A stretch of DNA of 32,226 nt from Phycisphaerae bacterium (GCA_049510055.1 JBEKZI010000017.1:1-32226); one strand, 5' to 3'. Counted from the stretch's first letter, positions 8,715 to 20,165 are shown. Program-made: numbers and translations. Notes: generated by a model not told the origin, from the sequence alone.

Positions 8715-9066
8715 GGGGGCGAACTGGCTTCGACCGGACGAGTTGCGGTGTCGGTGGCGTGCCCAGGTTCCAAGGAGGCCTGGTAAAACACCTTGGACTA
8801 ACTTCAGATGCCAATCCCGAATTGGCACTGGCTGCCTAATTAGGTAGCCCGTCCGGTGGGTCTTGCCCGCGAGGCCCGCCAGGACGCAAGCAGCGGGCTT
8901 ACCGGCTGGGAGTGGCCCGGTTACCCAGTCGGGACATTATGGGCGGGCTCGCCTTCGCCGGACCGTGTCGCCGCGGGCCGGCGAGGGGAGACCAAAACAG
9001 CGACTACGCACGTAGAGGCCGGCACTGAAACGTCACGGGACCCGGGTTCGATTCCCGGCGCCTCCA
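8715..9066 (+). ncRNA. ssrA: tmRNA (SsrA), one-piece, ~352 nt
   Basis: The 5' end GGGGGCGAACUGGCUUCGACC matches the tmRNA consensus (GGGGnnGA..UUCGAC). The 3' end GGACCCGGGUUCGAUUCCCGGCGCCUCCA has a T-arm plus an acceptor strand that pairs with the 5' GGGGGCG (6 Watson-Crick pairs and 1 G-U pair). An in-frame tag ORF GCC AAU CCC GAA UUG GCA CUG GCU GCC UAA lies at 8810..8839, about 95 nt from the 5' end; the E. coli resume codon is at about 90 nt. An E. coli-like GCACGUAGA element precedes the T-arm. Confidence 0.8.
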
Positions 9067-9147
9067 TCCTGCTTCGCTCCGGCCTGAGGGGCCGGAGCTT
9101 CGCAGGACTTTGTCCTGCGAAGTAAGCGAAGCGAACTAAAAGCAGGT

Positions 9148-9192
9148 TGCCCTGCGTAGTCTCGGCGCGCCGGGACGAAGCAGGGCATTTTT
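9148..9192 (+). terminator. Intrinsic terminator after ssrA (stem TGCCCTGC ... GCAGGGCA with a nested GC hairpin, then TTTTT)
   Basis: The hairpin plus a T5 tract is read from the sequence. It is preceded by two further perfect hairpins at 9077..9097 and 9101..9119. Confidence 0.65.
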
Positions 9193-9473
9193 ACGTCATC
9201 AGCTCACCTGCGGCTTGCCCGGCTCGCCTCGCCACAGCGAGTCGCCGTGGCGACTTGGCAAGCCGCTGCCAGAAACTGTTTCGACCCCGGGAACACGTGC
9301 TCCATTCTACTTCGCTTCCCGCACGTCAGCCGGAAGCCATTCGCCAGTGCCCTCGTCTGTGGCCGACGTTCACGGTGCCAGAGCATGTTGCCGCTTACGG
9401 CGTGCGGCGCTTTGACGTAATATGACCGGCGGCGGCAACAGGCGCCTTTTGGGACTTTCCAGACGGGAAACGC

Positions 9474-11615
9474 ATGCGGGATTTCACCCGATCTTTGAAG
9501 TACCTCTGGCCTTACCGGCTGCGGATAGGTCTGGCCCTGCTCTGCACGCTGGGTATCAGCGTGCTGTGGGCCGGCGGACTGGCTGCGATCCTGCCGGCGG
9601 CCAAGGTGCTGATGTCTTCCGAGGGCCTGCACGGCTGGGTGTACAGGCTGGCGGCCTCGGACCGCCTGGGCGTGGACCTGGTCTCGTACTTGCCCCCCGA
9701 GCGCACCCAACTCCAGGGCCAGCAGCTCTCTTGGGTGGTGGCGGTGGGGCAGCCCCATCGTTCGCACCGCAACGCCGGCGCCCTGCTGCCGGGCCAGTGG
9801 GTGGTGGGTCTGGAGGATGGCGACGTCGCTCACCGGTTTCTGCGGGCGGATGCACTGCTGCGGCTGCTGGCGATGCAGCAGCCGGATCGGCGGATCACGC
9901 TTCGCGTATGCCGGTCGGACAGCGACCAGATTACGCTGTTGCCTGTGGTGACAAGCACGTTGACCCTGTCGACCCAAGCGATGCTTTGGCTGACCCGGCG
10001 CTTTCCCGAGCCGCGGACCTTCGCGGACCGCTTCCCGATCCTGTTGACGCTGCTGGTCTTCGGGATCGTCATCAGCATCCTGCGCGACGCCCTGCGGATT
10101 CTTCAGGAATTCCTGTCCAGCTCGGCGGTGTGGTACGCGGTGAATGACATCCGCAACGACAACTACAACGTGGCCCTGCGTCTGCCGGTGGGCTATTACG
10201 CCAAGCACGGGACCGCCGACGCGATCAGCCGTTTCACCTATGACGTGGGTATGCTGGCCCGGGGGCTCATCACGTTGCTGAGCAAGACGCTGGTGGAGCC
10301 CGCCAAGGCGTTGGCGACGCTGGCCCTGGCGCTCATCCTGTCCTGGAAGCTGACCCTGATCGCCCTGATCGCCGGTCCGCCGGCATTCCTGGCCATTCGC
10401 CGGCTGGGGCGGGCGATGCGACGCGTTTCGCGCCAGGCGATGCTGAGCATGTCCCAAATGCTGGAGGTGCTGGAGGAGACGCTCGGCGGCATCCGAGTGG
10501 TCAAGGCCTACACCATGGAGAATCGCGAGCGCCGGCGGTTCCTGCGGGTCAACCACCAGTTGCTCCGCCAGAACCTCAAGGTGTTCTTTGTGGAAGCGTT
10601 GACGGCCCCGATCGTGGAGGCGCTGGGGATCACCGCGGCCATGGCCGCCGTAGCCGTGGCGGGATACTGGGTGCTCCACAATCAGCACGACTTGGACGCC
10701 GAGAAGTTCCTGGCGTTGATGGCGTGCCTGGTGGCGATGTTCGACCCGATTCGCAAGCTCTCGTCCGTTTCGACCGTCTTTCACGCCTCGGACGCCGCCG
10801 CGGCGCGGATCAGGGAACTGCACGATGCGCCGCAGGAAGTCACGTCGCCCGGGGCGCCCAGTCTGCCGCGCCACCGGCGCAGCATCGAGTTCCGCCACGT
10901 CAGTTTCCGCTACGACGGGACGAGCGATGACGCCCTTCGCGACGTCAACCTGACTATCCGGGCCGGCGAGAACGTAGCCATCGTCGGGCCCAACGGTTCG
11001 GGCAAGACCACGCTGGTGTCGATGCTCCCGCGATTGTTGGACCCCACGACCGGCCAGGTGCTCATTGATGGGACGGACATCGCGCGGTGCTCTTTGCGGT
11101 CGTTGCGGCGGCAGATCGGGCTGGTGACGCAGGACGCCGTACTTTTCCACGCCACGATCGAGGAGAACATCTCCTACGGTCTGCACCGTTCGCAGCCCGA
11201 CAAGACCCGCCGCGCGGCCGAGCGGGCCTACGTGGACGAATTCATCCGGAAACTGCCCGAAGGATACGGCACCCTTGTGGGCCCCCATGGAGCGACGCTC
11301 TCGGGCGGGGAGAAGCAGCGGATCAGTATCGCTCGTGCCATCCTGCGCGACCCGGCTATCCTCATCTTTGACGAGGCGATGAGCCAGATCGACTCCGATT
11401 CGGAGCACCGGATTCAGCAAGCGATGCAGGAGTTCTCACGTGGCCGGACGACGCTGATCGTCGCGCACCGCTTTGCGACGGTGCTGGCCGCCGGCCGCAT
11501 TGTGGTGATGCAGGCGGGGCGGATTCAGGACAGCGGCACGCACGACGAGTTGATGAGCCGCTGTGAACTCTATCGACACCTCTACGCCACTCAGTTCATC
11601 GCCACGGGCGGCTAG
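9474..11615 (+). CDS. ABC exporter (fused transmembrane and ATPase domains, MsbA/McjD-like) with a ~150-aa extracytoplasmic insertion between TM1 and TM2
   Basis: It has Walker A GPNGSGKTT, ABC signature LSGGEKQR, Walker B ILIFDEAMS and an H-loop IVAHR. Six hydrophobic helices are present, plus a long hydrophilic loop (residues ~48-190) after TM1. It is convergent with the RiPP operon. The 738-aa minus-strand ORF over it is an antisense artefact. Confidence 0.9.
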   Translation: MRDFTRSLKYLWPYRLRIGLALLCTLGISVLWAGGLAAILPAAKVLMSSEGLHGWVYRLAASDRLGVDLVSYLPPERTQLQGQQLSWVVAVGQPHRSHRNAGALLPGQWVVGLEDGDVAHRFLRADALLRLLAMQQPDRRITLRVCRSDSDQITLLPVVTSTLTLSTQAMLWLTRRFPEPRTFADRFPILLTLLVFGIVISILRDALRILQEFLSSSAVWYAVNDIRNDNYNVALRLPVGYYAKHGTADAISRFTYDVGMLARGLITLLSKTLVEPAKALATLALALILSWKLTLIALIAGPPAFLAIRRLGRAMRRVSRQAMLSMSQMLEVLEETLGGIRVVKAYTMENRERRRFLRVNHQLLRQNLKVFFVEALTAPIVEALGITAAMAAVAVAGYWVLHNQHDLDAEKFLALMACLVAMFDPIRKLSSVSTVFHASDAAAARIRELHDAPQEVTSPGAPSLPRHRRSIEFRHVSFRYDGTSDDALRDVNLTIRAGENVAIVGPNGSGKTTLVSMLPRLLDPTTGQVLIDGTDIARCSLRSLRRQIGLVTQDAVLFHATIEENISYGLHRSQPDKTRRAAERAYVDEFIRKLPEGYGTLVGPHGATLSGGEKQRISIARAILRDPAILIFDEAMSQIDSDSEHRIQQAMQEFSRGRTTLIVAHRFATVLAAGRIVVMQAGRIQDSGTHDELMSRCELYRHLYATQFIATGG

Positions 11616-11715
11616 TGACCTTCGCCTTGCCCATGCCATCCGCCGGCGGCCAATGGCCCTGTGTTTCCGGACTGATGCCCCCGGTCTCTCGGAATGCCGA
11701 TGGGGAACCCCCCCC

Positions 11716-13179
11716 CTACCAGGGCACGCGCAGGGCCCGGAGGGGATGCCGCAGGACGAACCGGGCCAGCTTGCGGCGCATCGCCCGCCGGACGGCGAGA
11801 TCCCCTGACGGGGTATCGCGAAGGTAGGCCCACCGCATCTGCGGTTTGACGGTGTACTTCAGGAACCTCCGGTAGGCGCGGTTGAGCTCCTCATCCGACA
11901 TGGCCGTGAGGTTCACCGACGGGCCCGGCACTTCGAAGTAGGAAAGGCTTCCCCAGGTCAGAGTGCTCCGCTCTTGTGGACTGAGGTCCTGGTAGATCGG
12001 CGTGCCGGGCAGCGGGAAAAGCCGGCCGGCGGCGATGATCTCGGGTCTGGCCTGGCGCAGGAACTTGACGGTCTGGTTCAAATCCCATGCCGTTTCGCCG
12101 GGCAGACCTACCATGATGTCGGCGAAGATGCGCAGGCCCGCCTGGCGGGTCAGCAAGACGGCCCGGCGGTTGAGCTCGGCGGTGGCGTTCTTGCCCAGCC
12201 GGCGCAGCGCGTCGCTTGAACCGCTCTCAAAGCCGTACTCCACCTGGATGCACCCGGCCGATTTCATCTGATTCAGCAGCTCGCTGTCCGCTTGGTCCAC
12301 ACGCAGGCAGGCGTCCCATTGGAGCTGTTGGTGCAGGCCGGCGCGTCGGATCTGCTCGCAGAGCTCCAGCAGCCGCGAACGGTCGGCCCCCAGCGTGTCA
12401 TCCTCAAAGTGGATGGCCTCGACGCCGAACCGCCGGCGAGCAACCTGCATCTGCTCGATGACGTACGGAATGGAATGGAACCGCACGCCGACGCCGGAAA
12501 TCAAGTGCCCGGCGCAGAAGCGGCAGCGATTCGTGCAGCCGCGACTGGTGCGAATGTTGATCGCGGCGAGCTTGAGCCAGCGGATCAGGAATCGCCCTGG
12601 CGAGGTGTAGTAATCCATGCCGAATAGGTCGTAGGCGGGCGGTCCCAGGGTGTCCAGGTCCGTTACCGGCGGGCGGTCGGGCGTGCGGACGATGCCGCCG
12701 GCGGTGCGGAAGGCGATTCCCCGCACCGCTGGGCCGGGCCCGCCCTCGGCCAGCTCTCGCAGGGTGATTTCGCCCTCCCCGATGACGGCGACGTCGATCT
12801 GGGGACACTCCTGGAGCAGATGCTCGGGCAGGGCGGTGGGGTGCGGGCCGCCGGCCACTACCAGCGTCGCCGGGCCGCAGATCGTCTTGGCGTCCTGGGC
12901 CGCGAGTTGCCCTTCGGGCACACCCGGGGTTACCAGGGACAGTCCGACTATTTGCGGCTGGAACTCCTGCATCAATGTCTGCAGACTCGCCCGAGCGGCC
13001 GGCCAGTCAAAGCCGTTGCGCACCAACTGTTCCTCGGCGACGTACACCTTGACCTCATGGCCGCTGCGTCTCAGGACGGTCGCGATGCAGGCGATGCCAG
13101 TGGGCACCCATTGGGATCGAAAGATCCCTCGGGGCCAATCGGAGCGAGGAGGCGCGGGATAGACCAGCAGGATTTTCAT
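11716..13179 (-). CDS. B12-binding (class B) radical SAM enzyme
   Basis: An N-terminal cobalamin-binding Rossmann-like domain (MKILLVYPAPP ...) is followed by a radical SAM CxxxCxxC motif (CTNRCRFC). The start at 13179 forms an ATGA overlap with the upstream stop codon. The track ORF extends to 13281, which is unlikely to be the real start. Confidence 0.8.
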   Translation of the reverse strand: MKILLVYPAPPRSDWPRGIFRSQWVPTGIACIATVLRRSGHEVKVYVAEEQLVRNGFDWPAARASLQTLMQEFQPQIVGLSLVTPGVPEGQLAAQDAKTICGPATLVVAGGPHPTALPEHLLQECPQIDVAVIGEGEITLRELAEGGPGPAVRGIAFRTAGGIVRTPDRPPVTDLDTLGPPAYDLFGMDYYTSPGRFLIRWLKLAAINIRTSRGCTNRCRFCAGHLISGVGVRFHSIPYVIEQMQVARRRFGVEAIHFEDDTLGADRSRLLELCEQIRRAGLHQQLQWDACLRVDQADSELLNQMKSAGCIQVEYGFESGSSDALRRLGKNATAELNRRAVLLTRQAGLRIFADIMVGLPGETAWDLNQTVKFLRQARPEIIAAGRLFPLPGTPIYQDLSPQERSTLTWGSLSYFEVPGPSVNLTAMSDEELNRAYRRFLKYTVKPQMRWAYLRDTPSGDLAVRRAMRRKLARFVLRHPLRALRVPW

Positions 13180-14090
13180 CTGGATTTCAACGTACTCCGG
13201 AACCATTGCCGGCGGAATGAGTCGCGCCGAGCGTGTCCGCGCAGGACGACGCCGCGGCTCAGTGCCAGGCGGCTTAACCAAGGGGGCCGGGACAGGCCCA
13301 GACGCCGCGCTAACTCGCGGCAGCGGCTCTCGCCCAGCAGCTTATAGGCCAGCCACAGGCCCATCGCAACCGCCTTGGCCGCCCCGGTGCGGGCCAGGGC
13401 GTCCTTCAGCCAGGCCTCGTCCAGTCCACCGGCCGCTTGACGAACCGCCAGCGTGAGGTCCACCAGCGGTTGCAGGCGATCGAAACTGTGGCTGGCGGCG
13501 CCGTGGACCGCCGCGATCAGGATCGTCCCGGCCGGGCTGGGATGGGGCAGAGGATCGGCTGGAGTCAGTTGCAGGTCCTCGAAGCTCACCGACACGCCGC
13601 GCCGCAAGGTGGGAGAGTTCACCAGGTTGGTGTGCACCTCCACGTGGCCGGCTGATCGCTGGGGCCGATGCCAGACCTCCTCCCCGTAACCCAGGGGGTG
13701 CTTCATGGCGACGACGACCGGCCGGTATCCCAGGTGCTCCATCCGGGGGCGTGTCGCGGCCAGCGCCGACTGCGGGATCAGCAGGTCCACGTCGGTGAAA
13801 GACCTCAGCGACGGGTGAGGATAGAGGCGATCGGCGAAATCGTAACCCTTCAGGACGATCACCGGCAAAGCAGCTTGGCGGAAGTCCTGGGTGATCTCGT
13901 GAGCCTGCTGCCGCAGCGCCAGGCACAGGCCTGTTCGTTGAAGGATCATGCCTGGGACGGATTCCCACAACGCCTGCGCCTTATCATCCCCGTTCCACAA
14001 CACCTGGCCGCGATCCGCCAGGCGGTGGATGTTGGACGCGACCGCCGGCAACACGCCGTGACGATCCGCCAGATCCAGCAGGAGTTTCAT
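13176..14090 (-). CDS. Nucleotidyltransferase-family protein (PF14907-like uncharacterised nucleotidyltransferase)
   Basis: The motif LKGYDFADRLYPHPSLRSFTDVDLLIP matches the family signature (hG-x-aromatic ... R-x-x-DiDlli). The start is taken at ATG 14090 (MKLLLDL); the track ORF begins at an upstream TTG. Family assignment is from memory of the motif and is moderately certain. Confidence 0.65.
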   Translation of the reverse strand: MKLLLDLADRHGVLPAVASNIHRLADRGQVLWNGDDKAQALWESVPGMILQRTGLCLALRQQAHEITQDFRQAALPVIVLKGYDFADRLYPHPSLRSFTDVDLLIPQSALAATRPRMEHLGYRPVVVAMKHPLGYGEEVWHRPQRSAGHVEVHTNLVNSPTLRRGVSVSFEDLQLTPADPLPHPSPAGTILIAAVHGAASHSFDRLQPLVDLTLAVRQAAGGLDEAWLKDALARTGAAKAVAMGLWLAYKLLGESRCRELARRLGLSRPPWLSRLALSRGVVLRGHARRDSFRRQWFRSTLKSR

Positions 14091-14184
14091 CTGTTCCCCC
14101 CGCAAGGGAGCGACCGTGACCGGTATGTCGCGCCCGAGGGGATCGGCCAGTGCCGCCAGAATGGAATAGATCGGCTTCAGAGGT

Positions 14185-15168
14185 TCACCTCAGCAGCGAC
14201 GTGACCAGCGCCCCAAGCTCTTGGAGGCGAGGGCCAAGGCTCACCTCGTACGTGTCGCTCGTGCGAACCAGCTCAGCCATGGCCGCGAACGCCCGCCCGT
14301 CGCTGCCCTCGCGGTGCTTCTCGTACGCACGCACGTTCTCGTTGACCAATCGGACCAGAGCGCGGGTTTTGTCCAGGGGATGCACCTGATGCTGCCAGGG
14401 ATTGTGGGGATTGAGGAAAAGGATCAGCCCCGCCGAGGCGGCCACGCGGGTGGTCGGCGCCGCGGCCGGCCGCACATCCACCAGCACCTCATCGTTTCCG
14501 ATGTGGCCCCTGTGAGGCAGTCCTGCCAGCCACGGCAGCATCTGAATCGTTTGGCGGTGGACCTTGCAGGGGAAGCGAAGGCCCCAGAGCTGCGCATCGT
14601 GGTGCGGCGTGGCCGGGCTGAAGAACGTGATGTCGTCGGCCAGCAGGCTGAAGCCTTCGCCGGCCAGGCCCAGGGCCGTGGTGGTCTTTCCCCTCCCGCT
14701 GAGGCCGGAGATGAGCACGGCCCGTCGCTGCGGCGGACGATCCAGGAACAGGCTGGCGGCGTGGATGACGTAGTGCCCCTGGTCGTTGAGGATGTCGCAG
14801 AGCCACGGCAGGACGCACGCCTCCAGCAGGCACCTTTCGGCCCCGGGCCGGACGACGAACTCCGCCCGCCCCGCCGACAAGTCCACGTCGGCCGTGGCTT
14901 GGTCGATCACCTCGGTTTGGCGTCTTCGCGGATTGCAGCGGAAGATGATTCGACTTCCGTTAGGCAGCGAACCCCGCCAGAATTCCGGCAGGTCCGTCAG
15001 GGCAGGCAAGTGCTGCGCGTAGCGAATGCGGAGGCAAAACGCCCCGTCGCCCGGCTGGGCGGCATAGGCGCCAATGGCGGCCTGCACGGGGGCGAGCAGC
15101 GCCGGGTCGTCCGCCTCGACGGCGATGCGTTCGCCATGAACGTCGAAATGGGCTTGGACGGAACACAT
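14185..15168 (-). CDS. HPr kinase/phosphorylase C-terminal-domain-like P-loop kinase (HprK-related kinase)
   Basis: P-loop LISGLSGRGKTTTALGLAGEGFSLLADD is typical of the HprK-like kinases found in RiPP and lasso clusters. There is no HPr-binding N-terminal domain. Only one in-frame ATG is available. Confidence 0.75.
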   Translation of the reverse strand: MCSVQAHFDVHGERIAVEADDPALLAPVQAAIGAYAAQPGDGAFCLRIRYAQHLPALTDLPEFWRGSLPNGSRIIFRCNPRRRQTEVIDQATADVDLSAGRAEFVVRPGAERCLLEACVLPWLCDILNDQGHYVIHAASLFLDRPPQRRAVLISGLSGRGKTTTALGLAGEGFSLLADDITFFSPATPHHDAQLWGLRFPCKVHRQTIQMLPWLAGLPHRGHIGNDEVLVDVRPAAAPTTRVAASAGLILFLNPHNPWQHQVHPLDKTRALVRLVNENVRAYEKHREGSDGRAFAAMAELVRTSDTYEVSLGPRLQELGALVTSLLR

Positions 15169-15177
15169 AACGTGGAT

Positions 15178-15216
15178 ACTAAAAGCAAGGAGCAGAATAC
15201 ACTGCCCCTTGCTTTC
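15178..15216 (-). promoter_or_regulatory. Stem-loop plus U-tract between the precursor array and the kinase gene; a possible attenuator or partial terminator
   Basis: The minus-strand RNA reads AAAGCAAGG-GGCAG-uguauu-CUGCU-CCUUGCUUUU. The kinase ATG follows 13 nt later. The structure was read directly from the sequence. Confidence 0.45.
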
Positions 15217-15299
15217 GCCGCCATACGGATTTTTGTGTCAAATGGGTTTAGACCGGTACGCTCCCGTCCGCGGCCGAGCCGGTTGCGACGCCTGAAACG

Positions 15300-15410
15300 C
15301 CCCCCCGTTACATCCGAAAGCTGCTCACGCTTCTGAAACGTTGGCTGAGAAGAGGGCTTCTGGGGCGTTTCTACGCTTTCCCTAACCCGATACCGTGGCG
15401 AAGCCGCACT
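15300..15410 (-). pseudogene. Decayed ninth copy of a type-1 precursor-peptide unit (start codon and Shine-Dalgarno lost)
   Basis: It aligns base-for-base with the functional units (for example CATCCGAAAGCTGCTCACGCTTCTGAAACGTTGGCTGAGAAGAGGGCTTCTGGGGCGTTTCTACGC against TATCCGAGAGCTTTTCACGCTTCTGGAGCGTAGGCGGAGAATAGGGTTTCTTCGTTTGCATGC). TCTACGC replaces TGCATGC at the start, and the SD CTCCTTC is mutated to TTTCCCT. Confidence 0.5.
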
Positions 15411-15416
15411 GTCTAT

Positions 15417-15518
15417 TTAAAAGGGCCCCCCTGAGCCGCGGACCGGGCTTTGAGTCGTATCCGAGAGCTTTTCGCGCTTCTGGAGCGTTGGCGGAGAATA
15501 GGGTTTCTTCGTTTTCAT
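15417..15518 (-). CDS. Precursor peptide A, type 1 (33 aa): MKTKKPYSPPTLQKREKLSDTTQ | SPVRGSGGPF
   Basis: AAGGAGAT Shine-Dalgarno 8 nt before the ATG. The leader carries Y-17, P-14, L-12 and T-2. It is not in the ORF track (under 60 aa). It is one of 8 tandem paralogues. Confidence 0.7.
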   Translation of the reverse strand: MKTKKPYSPPTLQKREKLSDTTQSPVRGSGGPF

Positions 15519-15562
15519 GCGATCTCCTTCAACCGGCACTGTGGCGACGCCGCACTGCCCGC

Positions 15563-15667
15563 TTAACGCCTAGCGCCCGAGGTGATGGAGGGACCGCCTT
15601 GAGTCATATCTGAGAGCTTGTCCCGCTTTTGGAGCGTCGGCGGAGAATAGGGCTTCTTCGTTTTCAT
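15563..15667 (-). CDS. Precursor peptide B, type 1 (34 aa): MKTKKPYSPPTLQKRDKLSDMTQ | GGPSITSGARR
   Basis: Hand-translated from the minus strand. AAAGAGCT Shine-Dalgarno-like sequence. Same leader as peptide A; the core differs. Confidence 0.7.
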   Translation of the reverse strand: MKTKKPYSPPTLQKRDKLSDMTQGGPSITSGARR

Positions 15668-15712
15668 GCGAGCTCTTTCAGCCGGCATCGTGGCGACGCC
15701 GCAGAAGCCTAC

Positions 15713-15826
15713 TTAACCCGTACCATCCCTAGCGCCTGAGGTGATGGGGGGACTACCTTGAGTCATATCTGAGAGCTTGTCCCGCTTCTGGAGCGTAGGC
15801 GGAGAATAGGGCTTCTTCGTTTTCAT
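15713..15826 (-). CDS. Precursor peptide C, type 1 (37 aa): MKTKKPYSPPTLQKRDKLSDMTQ | GSPPITSGARDGTG
   Basis: Hand-translated from the minus strand. Leader identical to peptide B. Core carries the ITSG motif. Confidence 0.7.
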   Translation of the reverse strand: MKTKKPYSPPTLQKRDKLSDMTQGSPPITSGARDGTG

Positions 15827-15871
15827 GCGAGCTCTTTCAGCCGGCACCGTGGCGACGCCGCAGAAGCCTGC

Positions 15872-15985
15872 TTAAGCATTACCATCCCTAGCGCCTGAGG
15901 TGATGGGGGGGTCGCCTTGAGTCATATCTGAAAGCTTGTCCCGCTTCTGGAGCGTAGGTGGAGAATAGGGTTTCTTCGTTTTCAT
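15872..15985 (-). CDS. Precursor peptide D, type 1 (37 aa): MKTKKPYSPPTLQKRDKLSDMTQ | GDPPITSGARDGNA
   Basis: Hand-translated from the minus strand. AAAGGAGAT Shine-Dalgarno. Leader identical to peptides B and C. Confidence 0.7.
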   Translation of the reverse strand: MKTKKPYSPPTLQKRDKLSDMTQGDPPITSGARDGNA

Positions 15986-16030
15986 GCGATCTCCTTTAGC
16001 CAGCACCGTGGCGACGCCGCAGAAGCCTAC

Positions 16031-16141
16031 TTAATCATTAGCATCAACGCCCGAGGTGATGGAGGCCCCGCCTTGAGTCGTATCCGAGAGCTTTTCACGC
16101 TTCTGGAGCGTAGGCGGAGAATAGGGTTTCTTCGTTTGCAT
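16031..16141 (-). CDS. Precursor peptide E, type 1 (36 aa): MQTKKPYSPPTLQKREKLSDTTQ | GGASITSGVDAND
   Basis: It is the internal Met of track ORF 16031..16240. AAGGAGAT Shine-Dalgarno before this ATG. Confidence 0.75.
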   Translation of the reverse strand: MQTKKPYSPPTLQKREKLSDTTQGGASITSGVDAND

Positions 16142-16181
16142 GCAATCTCCTTCAACCGGCACCGTGGCGACGCCGCGTTGG

Positions 16182-16292
16182 TCACGGGGGTGTAGGTGTA
16201 ACCCCGCTGACGCCGTCGGGCACAGCGGTGATGTCGGCAAGCCGCTCCAGCTTCTTCAACACGGGTTTGACATAGGGCTTCTTGGCGTTCAT
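16182..16292 (-). CDS. Precursor peptide F, type 2 (36 aa): MNAKKPYVKPVLKKLERLADITA | VPDGVSGVTPTPP
   Basis: It is the internal Met of track ORF 16182..16364. AAGGAAT Shine-Dalgarno. The type-2 leader carries the same Y-17, P-14, L-12 and T-2 positions. Confidence 0.75.
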   Translation of the reverse strand: MNAKKPYVKPVLKKLERLADITAVPDGVSGVTPTPP

Positions 16293-16305
16293 GCGTATTC
16301 CTTGG

Positions 16306-16416
16306 TCACTCGGGTGTAACCCCGCTGACGACGCCGGGCGTACCCTGAGCGGTGATGTCGGCAAGCCGCTCCAGCTTCTTCAACACGGGTTTGGCATAGG
16401 ACTTCTTGGTGTCCAT
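16306..16416 (-). CDS. Precursor peptide G, type 2 (36 aa): MDTKKSYAKPVLKKLERLADITA | QGTPGVVSGVTPE
   Basis: It is the internal Met of track ORF 16306..16488. AAAGGAAT Shine-Dalgarno. Confidence 0.75.
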   Translation of the reverse strand: MDTKKSYAKPVLKKLERLADITAQGTPGVVSGVTPE

Positions 16417-16429
16417 GCGTATTCCTTTT

Positions 16430-16540
16430 TCAACCGGGTGTAGCCCCACTGACGACGCCGGGCGTGCCCTGAGCGGTGATGTCGGCAAGCCGCTCCAGCT
16501 TCTTCAACACGGGTTTGGCATAAGGCTTCTTGGCGTTCAT
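16430..16540 (-). CDS. Precursor peptide H, type 2 (36 aa): MNAKKPYAKPVLKKLERLADITA | QGTPGVVSGATPG
   Basis: It is the internal Met of track ORF 16430..16663. AAAGGAAT Shine-Dalgarno. It is the first gene of the array after B2. Confidence 0.75.
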   Translation of the reverse strand: MNAKKPYAKPVLKKLERLADITAQGTPGVVSGATPG

Positions 16541-16646
16541 GCGTATTCCTTTCGCGTGCGGTCTGCCAAGCACGGAAATACGACCCGTATGAATGAGCGT
16601 CCACCACGTGTGACTTCGGACGAAGCTGGGCGGAAACTTAACACAG

Positions 16647-17117
16647 TTATGGGGCTTGTGCAAGGTCCTCTTTGACGGAATTTTCTTGCGCCGCGGCCCC
16701 GTGGACCAGCACCACCGCCGCCGGGCCGTCCGGGGGCGACGTTAAGGCTATATCATTGAGCGTCACCCAGCCGTGGGCTTGGGTTCGCGGGGCCTCCGGG
16801 TTTTGCGGATACACGCCGATTCGCAAAACGGCCGGGTAGCCTGCCAGGCGCAGGAAGTGAAACAGGGTTAGGGACTGTCGCAGGCAGGGGCGACGGCGCA
16901 TGTTGCGAGGGTTTTTCAGACGTTGCGCTACCCGCTCCACGATATCCTGCCAGGCAATGCCCCGGTAGGGGACCACGGAAGTCGGGGGCGTCAGCACGCG
17001 TAACACTCGCTTGAGCGACAAGACCTTGTCCAGCAGGGGAATGAACGTCGCCACCAGCCAGATGTGCGCCCGTAACAACGGCAATCGCAGCGACATGGGG
17101 CCGCTAGTGTTGCTCAA
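16647..17117 (-). CDS. Lasso-B2-like leader peptidase (transglutaminase-like Cys protease, PF13471-type)
   Basis: The protein has McjB-type catalytic residues: Cys in the RRRPCLRQSLTLFHFL context and His/Asp in QAHGWVTLNDIALTSPPDG. It is ~156 aa, the size of a stand-alone B2 domain. It overlaps the B1 stop by 14 nt; an alternative start lies at 17096. Confidence 0.75.
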   Translation of the reverse strand: MSNTSGPMSLRLPLLRAHIWLVATFIPLLDKVLSLKRVLRVLTPPTSVVPYRGIAWQDIVERVAQRLKNPRNMRRRPCLRQSLTLFHFLRLAGYPAVLRIGVYPQNPEAPRTQAHGWVTLNDIALTSPPDGPAAVVLVHGAAAQENSVKEDLAQAP

Positions 17118-17397
17118 CCAGCAATTTCTCCTGAAGAAGCTTGCCCGCCAAGGCGGTCATGTCCCGGGTAAGCTCCTCTCGCGAGACTTCGTACTGTTCC
17201 CAAAGGGTTTCAATGGCCTCCCCGAGCGTCCGCCGGCCGTCCAGTGCCTGCAGGAAGGCGGCAGTGGTCTCATTGCACGTGTACAGGTACCCGGAGTTGA
17301 GCGAGAACACGACCGTGTCCGATCCGGGGCCCAACGACTGGTAGGTCACGTCGTCGGCCAGCTTCAATCGCAGGTTCAGTAGCGGTATGGCAGTCAT
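17104..17397 (-). CDS. PqqD-family RiPP recognition element (lasso B1-like)
   Basis: Residues 26-122 of the track ORF (MTAIPLLNLRLKLADDVTYQSLGPGSDTVVFSLNSGYLYTCNETTAAFLQALDGRRTLGEAIETLW...) show the PqqD fold pattern. The start at 17397 is chosen to exclude the non-conserved 25-aa extension. Confidence 0.75.
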   Translation of the reverse strand: MTAIPLLNLRLKLADDVTYQSLGPGSDTVVFSLNSGYLYTCNETTAAFLQALDGRRTLGEAIETLWEQYEVSREELTRDMTALAGKLLQEKLLVEQH

Positions 17398-17474
17398 AGA
17401 AAGCTCACCTGAAGGTTTTCGTACCGCCGAATTCGACGGCCGCATTGTATAGTCACCGCCGACTTTCCACAACC

Positions 17475-17518
17475 TGCGGCGAACCTACCCTGGCAAGCCG
17501 GAATCGCGATTTCACACC
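17475..17518 (+). promoter_or_regulatory. Conserved ~45-nt element, copy 1 (TGCGGCGAACCTACCCTGGCAAGCCGGAATCGCGATTTCACACC), containing the perfect palindrome AATCGCGATT
   Basis: It matches 25584..25627 in the same orientation with a few substitutions. The perfect palindrome AATCGCGATT is at 17502..17511. It sits in the divergent region between the B1 gene and the secreted-protein gene. Confidence 0.55.
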
Positions 17519-17678
17519 ATGCCCGCCGATTCTGCGTGTCGCAGAAATGCGAAAAATATAGAGGGTCGGTAACACGTTGGTGACAATTGCCCTCTATCAT
17601 GCCGAGAGTAAATGAGCCGAATTGAGATCTTCGGCACGGGCCTAAACCAATGACTTCGGCAAGATAAAGGGACCAATC

Positions 17679-20165
17679 ATGAGACCACGGTTGATAGTGA
17701 TGGCAGTGGCCGCGACCTTGGCTGCAGTGGCATGCCTGGCGCAGGCCGAAAAAGCCTCCGTCCTTCTGGACAAGGGCATCTACACCGAAGAAACGCTTGG
17801 GAACCCCTCCGCGGCCATCGGCATCTACAGCCAGGTGGTCGCCAGCGGCGAGGCCGACCGCCAGTATGCCGCCCAGGCCCAGTATCGCATCGCGATGTGC
17901 CACCTGAAGCTCAAGCACGACAACGAGGCCCGCGAGGCGCTGAAGACATTCCTGAGCAAGTACAGCGATCAGGAAGAGCTGGCGTCCAAGGCCCGGACCG
18001 CGCTGGAGGACCTGCTGGAGTTCGACCCGGCGGCGCTCATGCCTCCCACCATCGTGGCCTACGTCGAGGTGGGCAGCCCCGGCAAACAGCTCGAGACGGT
18101 CCTGAAGATGCTGAAGGGCACGCCTTTGGCCAATCCGCTGGAGATGATGAATCCAACATCCGCGCCGTCGGATGCCTCCGCGCCGTCGGCGACCTCCGCG
18201 CCGGCGACTTCCTACGGCCGCCCCGCCAGTCCCGCCCAGGTCTTCTCGGCGTTGCTGAATCCCAGCATGCTGAAAGAGTTCAAGAAGCTTCGCAGCATGG
18301 CCGTGGGCGTCTCCGAGATCAAAGGCCGCGGCCAGAGCCCCTTCGTGGCCGTCTTGAGGCCCGGCGACAGCGACGCGCTCCGCGGGATCCTCACGGCCGG
18401 CGTGCTTGCCTCCGGCCAGCCCACCGCCCCGATCGAAGGCATGCAGACGGTGCAACTCAGCCCGGAGATGGCCTGCGCGTTCGACGACAGCGTGTTCCTC
18501 TTTGCCTCCCCGGTGTCTCAACTTGCCTGGAGCGTCCATCAGTATAAGTCCGGCGCGCCCGAACCCAGCCTGCTGACCGCCAACGAGTCGTTTTCGCGGC
18601 TGGCCCCTGCCGCCGATCGCAAAAATGACGCGCTGACGGTCTGGGCGAACCCTTCTCGGCTGCTCCAAAACAAAGCGTACATCCCGCCGGAAGCCCTGGA
18701 GAAAATGATGATCGCAAACGCCTTCGCCGACTTCGAAAACATGGAGGGCGCCGTCGTCCGGTTGCGCCTCAAGGAGACCAGCCTCAGCCTGGAGGCCACC
18801 GTCGCCTACCGCGAGGGGCGCAAAGCGTTTGGGTATGACCTGATCCGCACGTGTCCACTGGACCAGGCCGGTTTTGCCGCCGTTCCTCCGCAGGCGGTGG
18901 GCATCGTGGCCCTGGCCCTGTTGGAGCACACCGCCTCAACAGAACCTCCCGTCGCCGACGTTCGGCAGGAGACCGTCCGCCGTATCACCGGGCTGGACCT
19001 GGGGAGAGAGCTGTTCAGTAATATCGAGCAACTCTCGCTGTTCTTGATGCCGTCCAGCGAGGCGGCGACGGCCCATCCGTTGAGCCGTCTGTCTGTGGTG
19101 GCCCCGTCGCTGGGCCTGGCCATTACGTCGCGCAACCCCGCGCAGACCCTGGCCGTGCTGGACAGGATGTTGACGGTCCAAGGCCTGATGTCGGCAGGTT
19201 CCACCAGCGCCCCGGCGGCGGACGAGCAAGGCATGCGGACGTACGTAATCGGCGCCAGCAACCAGAAGCCGATATCCCTGTGCGTGGCGCAGAAAGGCAA
19301 GACCACGGTGCTGGCGTTCCTTCCGGAAGTGGTCCAGACGTCTCTGACGGCCCTGGGCACGGGCAAGAACGTCACGACCGACGGGCCGATGGCACAGGCC
19401 CTCGGCCAGGTCAGCGACAAGAACAAGGTGGTGCTGGTCAACGCCGGCGGACTGTTCCGCTTGTATGACGCCAGCGTCGCGCCGCCCGCGGCAAAACGCG
19501 ACGCGGCGTCGCAGCCGGCGACGGACAGCCAGGCCGTGGCCGATCAGATCGCCTCGGCCCTGGACGACACGGTAATCCGGCTGGAGACCTCCGAACTGCC
19601 GAACACCATGACGGTCCGCGCCGAGCTATTGGGCATTCCGCCGCTGGCGAAGCTGTTTCCTCTGGTCATGCAGTATCAGCAGCAGCGCATGGCCTTCCAG
19701 AAGGCCAGGAAATCGCAAGCACAACCTTCCCAAGAGCGCAACAAGCTCATGAAGCAGGTCGGAACAGATTTCCTCAAGGCCCTCCAGGCAAATGACGAGG
19801 CGGCGATTGGGAAATTGATCGTCCCGCACTCCTCCGTGGAGGCCAAGATCAAGGACCTACTTGCAGTCCCGGGTCTGGCGGCGTTTCGGTTCCAGGATAG
19901 CGGCAGGGCGCTAAATCTCGGTTGGGTCCTGGTGTACGGGCCCGACAAGACGGATTCCTCGGCGCCCGCGATACTGATCCATCTGCTCAAGCAGGCCAAG
20001 TCCCCGCCGCCGTGGCTCGTCTCGGACGTGGAAATCCTTCCGATCCCGGATGCCATACACCAATTGAAGCAGTACGATTCCAGGGCCACCGGCGGCCCGA
20101 TGCCGGCGCCTGCGCCGGCGCCCGCGCCTGCGGGTGATGATGCGGCGCCCGCCGAGAACAACTGA
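17679..20165 (+). CDS. Secreted 828-aa hypothetical protein (Sec signal peptide, TPR-like N-terminal region, Ala/Pro/Ser-rich linker, C-terminal PAPAPAPA)
   Basis: Signal peptide MRPRLIVMAVAATLAAVACLAQA. The amino-acid composition is coherent. AAAGGGA Shine-Dalgarno. The overlapping 511-aa minus-strand ORF is an artefact. Confidence 0.7.
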   Translation: MRPRLIVMAVAATLAAVACLAQAEKASVLLDKGIYTEETLGNPSAAIGIYSQVVASGEADRQYAAQAQYRIAMCHLKLKHDNEAREALKTFLSKYSDQEELASKARTALEDLLEFDPAALMPPTIVAYVEVGSPGKQLETVLKMLKGTPLANPLEMMNPTSAPSDASAPSATSAPATSYGRPASPAQVFSALLNPSMLKEFKKLRSMAVGVSEIKGRGQSPFVAVLRPGDSDALRGILTAGVLASGQPTAPIEGMQTVQLSPEMACAFDDSVFLFASPVSQLAWSVHQYKSGAPEPSLLTANESFSRLAPAADRKNDALTVWANPSRLLQNKAYIPPEALEKMMIANAFADFENMEGAVVRLRLKETSLSLEATVAYREGRKAFGYDLIRTCPLDQAGFAAVPPQAVGIVALALLEHTASTEPPVADVRQETVRRITGLDLGRELFSNIEQLSLFLMPSSEAATAHPLSRLSVVAPSLGLAITSRNPAQTLAVLDRMLTVQGLMSAGSTSAPAADEQGMRTYVIGASNQKPISLCVAQKGKTTVLAFLPEVVQTSLTALGTGKNVTTDGPMAQALGQVSDKNKVVLVNAGGLFRLYDASVAPPAAKRDAASQPATDSQAVADQIASALDDTVIRLETSELPNTMTVRAELLGIPPLAKLFPLVMQYQQQRMAFQKARKSQAQPSQERNKLMKQVGTDFLKALQANDEAAIGKLIVPHSSVEAKIKDLLAVPGLAAFRFQDSGRALNLGWVLVYGPDKTDSSAPAILIHLLKQAKSPPPWLVSDVEILPIPDAIHQLKQYDSRATGGPMPAPAPAPAPAGDDAAPAENN

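Follow-up and report, generated by a model that had tools for sequence, protein, structure and literature searches.

What does a bacterium make with leader-handling proteins of the lasso-peptide type when the synthetase that would close the lasso ring is not encoded beside them? The question is raised by a locus at positions 9474-17397 of a 32,226-nucleotide stretch of DNA from a Phycisphaerae bacterium (GCA_049510055.1 JBEKZI010000017.1:1-32226; this whole stretch is called the window here). The minus strand of the locus carries, in this order, a recognition protein (B1), a leader protease (B2), eight intact precursor genes and the relic of one more, a kinase, a PF14907 nucleotidyltransferase and a cobalamin (B12)-type radical S-adenosylmethionine (SAM) enzyme, and an MsbA-like ABC exporter is convergent to this operon, beside ssrA. 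Our analysis suggests that the operon probably makes short linear ribosomal peptides that would be (poly)phosphorylated and further capped, and that its family probably evolved from split-B lasso machinery that lost, or never had, the cyclase. Our confidence in the individual nucleotidyltransferase and radical SAM steps is much lower.

The first line of evidence is the absence of a cyclase. The cyclase family PF00733 had no match in any window open reading frame (ORF) of at least 200 amino acids and was absent from the precomputed Pfam hits of an identical metagenome contig (L001). The island is fully occupied by assigned genes, so that no room is left for a cyclase of 500 amino acids or more. 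In 17 independent homologous neighbourhoods, each taken to 10 kb on either side of the locus, no PF00733 or asparagine-synthetase homologue was found within about 10 kb. This search joined precomputed Pfam hits to direct scans of every long ORF; the alignment-wide Pfam scan gives the best 25 families, and a weak PF00733 hit is covered by the direct scans. The cyclase-free neighbourhoods span Phycisphaerae, Sedimentisphaerales, Verrucomicrobiota, a deltaproteobacterial metagenome-assembled genome (MAG) and Mesorhizobium. An earlier note on this DNA, made from its sequence, had reported that no asparagine-synthetase-like C protein is encoded in the region and that the cores carry no Asp or Glu at positions 7-9, and both statements hold, the second in all eight window precursors when cleavage is placed after Thr(-2)-x.

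The second line of evidence comes from the precursors themselves, which are eight intact ORFs of 33-37 amino acids between 15417 and 16540 on the minus strand. A hidden Markov model (HMM) built from them retrieved 65 unique peptides from 19 loci, for which the cleavage site after Thr(-2)-x was predicted by analogy. The window precursors and the relic are as follows, a slash marking the predicted cleavage site.

15417-15518, minus strand: precursor 1, MKTKKPYSPPTLQKREKLSDTTQ / SPVRGSGGPF (precursor HMM, E = 4.3e-17)
15563-15667, minus strand: precursor 2, leader ending in LSDMTQ / GGPSITSGARR (ORF and precursor HMM)
15713-15826, minus strand: precursor 3, leader ending in LSDMTQ / GSPPITSGARDGTG (ORF and precursor HMM)
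15872-15985, minus strand: precursor 4, leader ending in LSDMTQ / GDPPITSGARDGNA (ORF and precursor HMM)
16031-16141, minus strand: precursor 5, MQTKKPYSPPTLQKREKLSDTTQ / GGASITSGVDAND (ORF and precursor HMM)
16182-16292, minus strand: precursor 6, MNAKKPYVKPVLKKLERLADITA / VPDGVSGVTPTPP (also called, with 36 amino acids, on the identical contig L001)
16306-16416, minus strand: precursor 7, MDTKKSYAKPVLKKLERLADITA / QGTPGVVSGVTPE (ORF, precursor HMM and L001 gene call)
16430-16540, minus strand: precursor 8, MNAKKPYAKPVLKKLERLADITA / QGTPGVVSGATPG (ORF, precursor HMM and L001 gene call)
about 15312-15400, minus strand: degenerate ninth precursor (pseudogene relic), counted ninth in the 50-nt leader repeat family D2

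All 65 peptides have in common the pattern K-K-x-Y-x-x-P-x-L-x-[KR]-R-[ED]-x-L-x-x-[VI]-[TA]-[EQA], and the eight from the window all contain Y-x-x-P-x-L and a Thr at Y+15 followed by one residue; judged by sequence, this is how lasso leaders are built, with a Tyr-to-Thr spacing of 15 and then a single residue ahead of the core. Position -2 of the leader is Thr in 42 of the 65 and Ala in 18. The predicted cores, of 7-21 residues, begin with Gly in 35 cases and conserve a single feature, phi-phi-[Ser/Thr]-[Gly/Asp/...], with Val or Ile before the hydroxyl residue and usually Gly after it. Ser or Thr occupies core position 7 in 44/65 peptides, against 5-16/65 at any other position, and falls at positions 6-8 in 59/65, the exceptions having the same motif one to three residues later; position 6 is Val, Ile or Leu in 43/65. 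An acidic residue at positions 7-9 was seen in only 8 of the 65 and in none of the window precursors, always at position 8 beside the conserved Thr and never at position 7, and a C-terminal Ser ends one of the 65 and none of the eight. Because a hydroxyl is conserved at position 7 and an acidic residue is not, the residue under selection appears to be the hydroxyl rather than a ring-forming carboxylate.

The array is made of two sub-families, one with five copies at a period of about 156 nt and the other with three copies at a period of 124 nt. The relic, KPSSQPTFQKREQLSDVT, lies between precursor 1 and the kinase gene, has Ser in place of the Tyr anchor and lacks both a start codon and a stop after the core, which indicates that copies in the tandem array are gained by duplication and lost by decay.

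Loci with this gene set number at least 19 and come from several phyla, more than expected by chance, so that the co-occurrence in other genomes which the earlier note had proposed to look for is indeed there. The order B1, B2, one to about ten precursors, kinase, PF14907 protein and B12 radical SAM enzyme is found in six metagenomic loci (L007, L026, L027, L028, L029 and L031), and the full arrangement also in two Verrucomicrobiota MAGs (L011, L030), a deltaproteobacterial MAG (L013), a member of Planctomycetota (L014) and one of Sedimentisphaerales (L032). A partial gene set is present in L012, L019, L021 and L022. The first of these, a more distant version in the complete genome of Mesorhizobium sp. 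ANAO-SY3R2 (NZ_CP159955.1), has at 9173-13300 B1, B2, kinase and nucleotidyltransferase followed by two precursors (one of them, for example, MKRAYIKPVLVKSLLKLQAVTAGTISGPGEPTLPE) and a duplicated nucleotidyltransferase fragment, with no radical SAM enzyme and no cyclase. L022, also a more distant cluster, is alike in lacking the radical SAM gene and in having B1, B2, kinase and nucleotidyltransferase genes beside similar precursors with the phi-Ser-Gly core motif. The Mesorhizobium locus suggests that the kinase/nucleotidyltransferase core predates the acquisition of the radical SAM enzyme. Two further loci, L009 and L010 (8500-13564), have six to eight precursors with the kinase, nucleotidyltransferase and radical SAM genes and no B1 or B2 within 10 kb.

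Kinase-profile pattern scans of genomes and of metagenomes gave at least seven and at least eight loci, respectively, and the size of the family was taken from the profile search together with the nucleotidyltransferase and radical SAM searches. At E<=1e-30 the kinase family comprises no fewer than 290 representatives when clustered at 50% identity, and more than 120 clusters (90% identity) of the radical SAM enzyme show 53-87% identity to the window protein. The named sources of the radical SAM relatives are Phycisphaerae, Planctomycetota, Brocadiia and Verrucomicrobiota, and those of the nucleotidyltransferase are alike.

Single loci show peculiarities of their own. Upstream in L009/L010 there is a membrane protein of 914 amino acids without Pfam hits, and the motif V-T-D-G in the cores of this cluster puts an Asp at position 8. 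At 7904-8371 of L030 (Verrucomicrobiota GCA_049517655.1) one precursor, standing among five ordinary short ones, continues at its C-terminus into a fused Peptidase_S74 (intramolecular chaperone/autoprotease) domain. At 11001-13507 of L027 the nucleotidyltransferase and radical SAM genes appear truncated or split, with an IS200-type Y1 transposase 2 kb away; this cluster is possibly decaying.

Proteins were assigned to families from Pfam and NCBIfam profile matches, profile matches to PDB entries, and AlphaFold2 (AF2) models compared with Foldseek. The genes outside the precursor array are these.

17104-17397, minus strand: B1, discrete PqqD-like recognition element for ribosomally made, post-translationally modified peptides (RiPPs), 97 amino acids (PF05402 1.6e-12)
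16647-17117, minus strand: B2, lasso-type transglutaminase-fold Cys protease, 156 amino acids (NF033537 46 bits, PF13471 1.1e-10)
14185-15168, minus strand: HprK/PEPCK-fold P-loop kinase, 327 amino acids (TIGR04352 8.8e-10 and PF07475 3.8e-4, both below cut-off)
13176-14090, minus strand: PF14907 nucleotidyltransferase, 304 amino acids (PF14907 3.8e-33)
11716-13179, minus strand: class-B radical SAM enzyme, 487 amino acids from the ATGA-coupled ATG (PF02310 6.8e-18, PF04055 1e-17; alternative ATG at 13206)
9474-11615, plus strand: MsbA-like ABC exporter, fused permease/ATPase, 713 amino acids (PF00664 8.4e-33, PF00005 8.4e-35)
8715-9069, plus strand: ssrA (tmRNA), left neighbour, outside the pathway (ARAGORN, tag ANPELALAA; Rfam RF00023, 153 bits)

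The earlier note had described six functions in this order on the minus strand, an ATGA overlap joining the last two genes, a convergent exporter at the other end and a position next to ssrA. The ORFs with their Pfam and NCBIfam matches confirm the order and the coordinates, the two Pfam domains of the plus-strand protein identify the exporter, the tmRNA gene was located, and the overlap at 13176-13179 can be read directly from the sequence. The same note had B1 and B2 as members of their families, which they are by the PF05402 match of the former and the NF033537 score of the latter, above its cut-off of 33 bits. It further proposed that lasso-type leader recognition and B2 cleavage operate here without a macrolactam, delivering linear cores to the kinase, the nucleotidyltransferase and the B12 radical SAM enzyme; this reading is supported by the cyclase-free conservation of the arrangement in the 17 neighbourhoods and by the conserved Ser/Thr at core position 7 in place of an acidic acceptor.

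B1, whose gene overlaps that of B2 by 14 nt, has as best PDB matches the lasso B1 protein TfuB1 (0.004) and then 9x90, a 'lasso peptide biosynthesis PqqD family chaperone', and it matches the lasso PqqD models NF033530 and NF033536 below their cut-offs. B2 keeps the catalytic Cys and His, with Cys-Leu-Arg and His-x-Trp invariant in 15 homologues, and is labelled by NCBI as a 'lasso peptide biosynthesis B2 protein'. Among the features of the lasso class, therefore, the leader motif and the B1 and B2 proteins are present, whereas the PF00733 cyclase and the acidic acceptor are missing, and it is on these two defining features that the cluster does not qualify as a lasso cluster.

The kinase is the weakest gene assignment of the cluster. 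Its fold, its P-loop and its profile match to the PDB agree with the HprK-like identity given in the earlier note, whereas no Pfam match above threshold was obtained: PF07475 lies below its gathering score, and TIGR04352 (HprK_rel_A) matches residues 130-312 below cut-off. Across 35 homologues there is no variation in the P-loop GxSGxGKTT or in G158, G160, K161, T162, T163, D178 and D179, and the profile of these homologues has HPr kinase as its best PDB match (2.6e-4). The AF2 model (pLDDT 91) has the PEPCK/HprK fold, with PEPCK proteins as top Foldseek matches. Membership in Haft's HprK-related kinase A/B systems was considered and rejected: against a TIGR04352 cut-off of 200 bits the window kinase scores 38 bits and the homologues in L011, L012 and L022 score 24-43 bits, so that they are related to these systems and not members of them.

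In the PF14907 nucleotidyltransferase K81, G82, D100, D102, E151, H153 and H196 are invariant among 42 homologues, and its AF2 model (pLDDT 92.6) is closest to MenT1, ANT(2'')-Ia and LnuA, the last two being small pol-beta-fold O-nucleotidyltransferases; the DxD motif is kept. The four-nucleotide overlap of its stop with the start of the radical SAM gene is found, by gene coordinates, also in L007, L009, L011, L026 and L028-L031. The radical SAM enzyme contains the motif C-T-N-R-C-R-F-C (CxxxCxxC) and an N-terminal B12-binding domain, and by this predicted domain content it is of class B (cobalamin-dependent type). It is the most conserved protein of the set, with 53-67% identity across the family compared with 35-50% for the kinase. 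Among curated families it comes closest to HpnJ (158 bits), BchE (143), ApyD (131) and the PhpK family (114), in each case far short of the cut-off, the PhpK-type relatives being P-methyltransferases, and its best PDB matches are AprD4 (3e-19), followed by TokK and OxsB. AprD4 is not known to use cobalamin. Crosslinking of the sactipeptide, ranthipeptide, triceptide or darobactin type was discarded as a role for the enzyme, as the cores lack Cys and have almost no aromatic residues.

The ABC protein, whose best NCBIfam match is TIGR02203 MsbA (444 bits, below cut-off), is the probable exporter of the product. L026 has an orthologue (1023 bits) placed convergently in the same way, amid genomic surroundings unrelated to those of the window; the exporter was found in the window and L026 only, most other loci being without it. 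Between the first transmembrane helix and the start of the ABC_membrane match lies an insert of about 130 residues (residues ~50-190), and its length is conserved in the L026 orthologue (711 amino acids).

The earlier note had stated that HprK-like kinases and PF14907 nucleotidyltransferases always occur alongside a C protein, and this is now out of date: the linear polyphosphorylated peptide (LPP) systems of Bacillota (Popov et al., Nat Commun 2026, PMC13381572), first described in that year and the nearest known to our cluster, combine a discrete RiPP recognition element (RRE), an HprK-like kinase LppK, an NTP transferase LppN and the MsbA-like LppD, about two-thirds of their clusters have no cyclase, and polyphosphorylation of Ser was demonstrated. 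Their leaders read YxxPxVLxHQxIxFETxxS, Ser3 of the core is the polyphosphorylated residue, and phosphorylation comes before efficient leader cleavage; the authors suggest that LppN requires a further partner, and according to them LPPs do not occur outside Bacillota (PMC13381572). Our cluster resembles LPP clusters in joining an RRE, an HprK-like kinase and a PF14907-type NTP transferase with an MsbA-like exporter, without a cyclase, in a YxxP leader with Thr 15 residues after the Tyr, in the multiple precursors that are often found per cluster, and in conserving a hydroxyl residue early in the core. It differs in its peptidase, since LPP leaders are cut directly after Thr by the archaeal-type signal peptidase LppS (SipW-like) and here a B2 Cys protease is predicted to act one residue after Thr; Peptidase_S24/S26 had no match among the called genes of L001 or of the other family loci. 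It differs also in the site, which is Ser3 of FETxxS in cores of 35-200 amino acids in LPP and Ser/Thr7 of phi-phi-[ST]-G in cores of 7-21 in the present family, and in the B12 radical SAM enzyme translationally coupled to the nucleotidyltransferase, LPP having no radical SAM enzyme. As to distribution, LPP belongs to Bacillota, whereas this family belongs to Planctomycetota and Verrucomicrobiota with some proteobacterial members.

The lasso clusters of the paeninodin, pseudomycoidin and SyanA type share with ours the split B1/B2, an HprK-family kinase acting on the linear precursor and an ABC exporter, and those of the pseudomycoidin type also a PF14907-type enzyme, PsmN, which has a catalytic DxD and a fold like that of ANT(2''). 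Units of 162 Da are attached to phospho-Ser by PsmN, a protein whose model was built on ANT(2'') and in which D134 and D136, the counterparts of D100 and D102 here, are essential (PMC6993621); this template family is thus among the top structural matches of the window nucleotidyltransferase. The C synthetase, the Asp/Glu acceptor and the C-terminal Ser on which the kinase of those clusters acts are all lacking here, the last except in the one precursor mentioned. Split-B lasso systems of the fusilassin (TfuB1-B2-C) type have the same YxxPxLx(9)Tx leader, the B1 RRE and a B2 with Cys and His, and differ in having the class-defining cyclase and the ring acceptor residue. For a nucleotidyltransferase coupled to a B12 radical SAM enzyme there is a precedent in fosfomycin biosynthesis, where Fom3 reportedly recognises and methylates a nucleotide-linked phospho intermediate made with the cytidylyltransferase Fom1; the substrate is there a small-molecule phosphonate, and the relationship to our enzyme is seen only at the level of the class-B radical SAM superfamily. 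Literature searches for HprK-related kinase, for PF14907 with lasso, and for PqqD with HPr kinase and radical SAM did not find the layout described here. Given the LPP clusters, a kinase/nucleotidyltransferase logic without a cyclase is not unprecedented, but the layout with B2 and a B12 radical SAM enzyme is, and so is its distribution in the PVC superphylum. The cluster is best filed as a lasso-derived, kinase/nucleotidyltransferase-based linear RiPP variant, being neither a lasso cluster nor, because of its peptidase, its core motif and site and its extra B12 radical SAM enzyme, an LPP cluster in the strict sense. With the product proposed here it would be a Gram-negative cousin of the LPPs.

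Placing these results into a pathway, B1 would bind the YxxP leader and present the precursor, and the HprK-like kinase would phosphorylate Ser/Thr7, possibly several times, on the leader-bearing peptide, a step modelled on LppK, PsmK and PadeK, each of which acts on its own Ser. The PF14907 enzyme may then put a cap derived from a nucleotide or a sugar on the phosphate (or on the hydroxyl), in the manner of PsmN, and the B12 radical SAM enzyme may either modify the appended group, in analogy to Fom1 followed by Fom3, or C-methylate the adjacent conserved Val/Ile. The conserved coupling of the nucleotidyltransferase and radical SAM genes points to a shared intermediate. B2 with B1 would remove the leader after Thr(-2)-x and the MsbA-like protein would export the product; no macrolactam between the N-terminus and an Asp or Glu would be formed.

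Several points weigh against this proposal. Each of its chemical steps is deduced from sequence and comparison, and the putative HprK assignment of the kinase rests on HMM scores below threshold. LppK rejects Thr in place of Ser (PMC13381572), and Thr is common at position 7 here. The role of PF14907 proteins is unsettled even in characterised systems, deletion of LppN having no visible effect and the donor used by PsmN not being established. The radical SAM enzyme has no close characterised relative and any substrate named for it is a guess. Leader handling is not uniform in the family, as L009/L010 have no B1 or B2 nearby, and for any single genome a cyclase may lie more than 10 kb away.

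Three other explanations deserve to be weighed against the same evidence. The one that survives best, although we regard it as unlikely, makes the B12 radical SAM enzyme the source of the defining modification, acting on the backbone or the side chains of the peptide (by C-methylation of the conserved Val, Ile or Thr, for instance, as in polytheonamide-type enzymes), with phosphorylation and nucleotidylation as transient or auxiliary events such as a self-immunity or export handle removed later. The high conservation of this enzyme relative to the kinase, the beta-branched residues conserved at core positions 5-6 and the presence of RiPP C-methyltransferases among its NCBIfam relatives (ApyD, and TIGR03975 at 72 bits) are what such a role would lead one to expect. 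However, the Mesorhizobium locus and L022 do without it and still have B1, B2, the kinase and the nucleotidyltransferase together with the phi-Ser-Gly motif, which makes the enzyme look like an add-on to a kinase/nucleotidyltransferase core, and its conserved coupling to the nucleotidyltransferase gene argues for the shared intermediate of the pathway that we prefer.

A second explanation, which we consider quite improbable, is a lasso-like macrocycle closed through a bond other than an amide, in which Ser/Thr7, activated by phosphorylation or nucleotidylation, would bond with the N-terminal amine (elimination to dehydroalanine or dehydrobutyrine and subsequent aza-Michael addition being one conceivable route), and the kinase and nucleotidyltransferase, perhaps together with the radical SAM enzyme, would take the place of the ATP-dependent cyclase. 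Lasso peptides carry their ring-forming Asp or Glu at the position where Ser/Thr7 sits (range 6-8). The first core residue is mostly Gly, as in lasso peptides, B2 would expose a free N-terminus, and the family's core, the three tailoring genes, stays the same even where B1 and B2 are missing. Against this, neither a lyase nor a cyclase-like domain is encoded in the cluster, the phosphate is simply kept in the nearest characterised systems (LPP, paeninodin and pseudomycoidin), and the match at position 7 could reflect an inherited lasso-type precursor architecture rather than ring chemistry; moreover, we know of no precedent for the reaction. The bolder form of this idea, in which Ser/Thr7 and Gly1 would mark a new ring closure giving an amine-linked 'pseudo-lasso' macrocycle further altered by the B12 radical SAM enzyme, seems to us still more doubtful.

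Least of all do we favour an ordinary tailored lasso cluster with its C protein elsewhere in the genome and with the kinase, nucleotidyltransferase and radical SAM enzyme as accessory tailoring functions, as in paeninodin and pseudomycoidin, which we hold to be very improbable: the lasso-type B1, B2 (so labelled by NCBI) and leader motif, the inspection limit of about 10 kb on each side of each locus and the few family members with Asp/Glu at core position 8 (L009, L014) speak for it, but PF00733 is lacking in all 17 neighbourhoods, which are independent and come from several phyla, positions 7-9 hold no conserved acidic residue, the C-terminal Ser targeted by the characterised lasso kinases is nearly absent, and cyclase-less relatives are already documented (PMC13381572).

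With regard to its surroundings, the locus is flanked by housekeeping genes (argJ, argC, two aldo-keto-reductase/ferredoxin genes, an mtnA-like IF-2B gene, ssrA, a gene for a tetratricopeptide repeat (TPR) protein, a two-component system and bipA). The window, identical to a 32,226-nt NCBI contig of a metagenome-assembled genome, has the proteins MGA2265519-32, and the locus is also found on longer metagenome contigs of up to 1.18 Mb. Integration targeted to ssrA was discarded, as no direct repeat of the tmRNA 3' end occurs at the far boundary of the island; homologous clusters lie in unrelated contexts, so that the adjacency to ssrA looks incidental. The G+C content is 0.59-0.61 at 15001-18000, a region comprising the precursor array, B2, B1 and the upstream intergenic sequence, and 0.65-0.69 elsewhere. 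ARAGORN calls a tRNA-Leu(gag) of 93 nt at 18137-18229 on the minus strand, inside the conserved 828-amino-acid ORF of the TPR protein (17679-20165, plus strand); it is a probable false positive, no Rfam tRNA being found there at the gathering threshold. Promoter and terminator scans of 9-17.8 kb gave nothing above the shuffled expectation.

The B2 gene leads annotation pipelines to class such loci as lasso clusters. Descendants of the lasso machinery that have no cyclase, reported in 2026 only from Bacillota, now appear also as a large family among bacteria of the PVC superphylum and some Proteobacteria, with a different solution that uses a B2 protease and an added B12 radical SAM enzyme. The very short multi-copy precursors point to a single conserved target residue, and the self-contained operon of six enzymes offers a good system for finding what PF14907 enzymes such as PsmN and LppN attach to phosphoserine. 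The coupled radical SAM enzyme is a concrete candidate for the missing partner of LppN that Popov et al. postulated.

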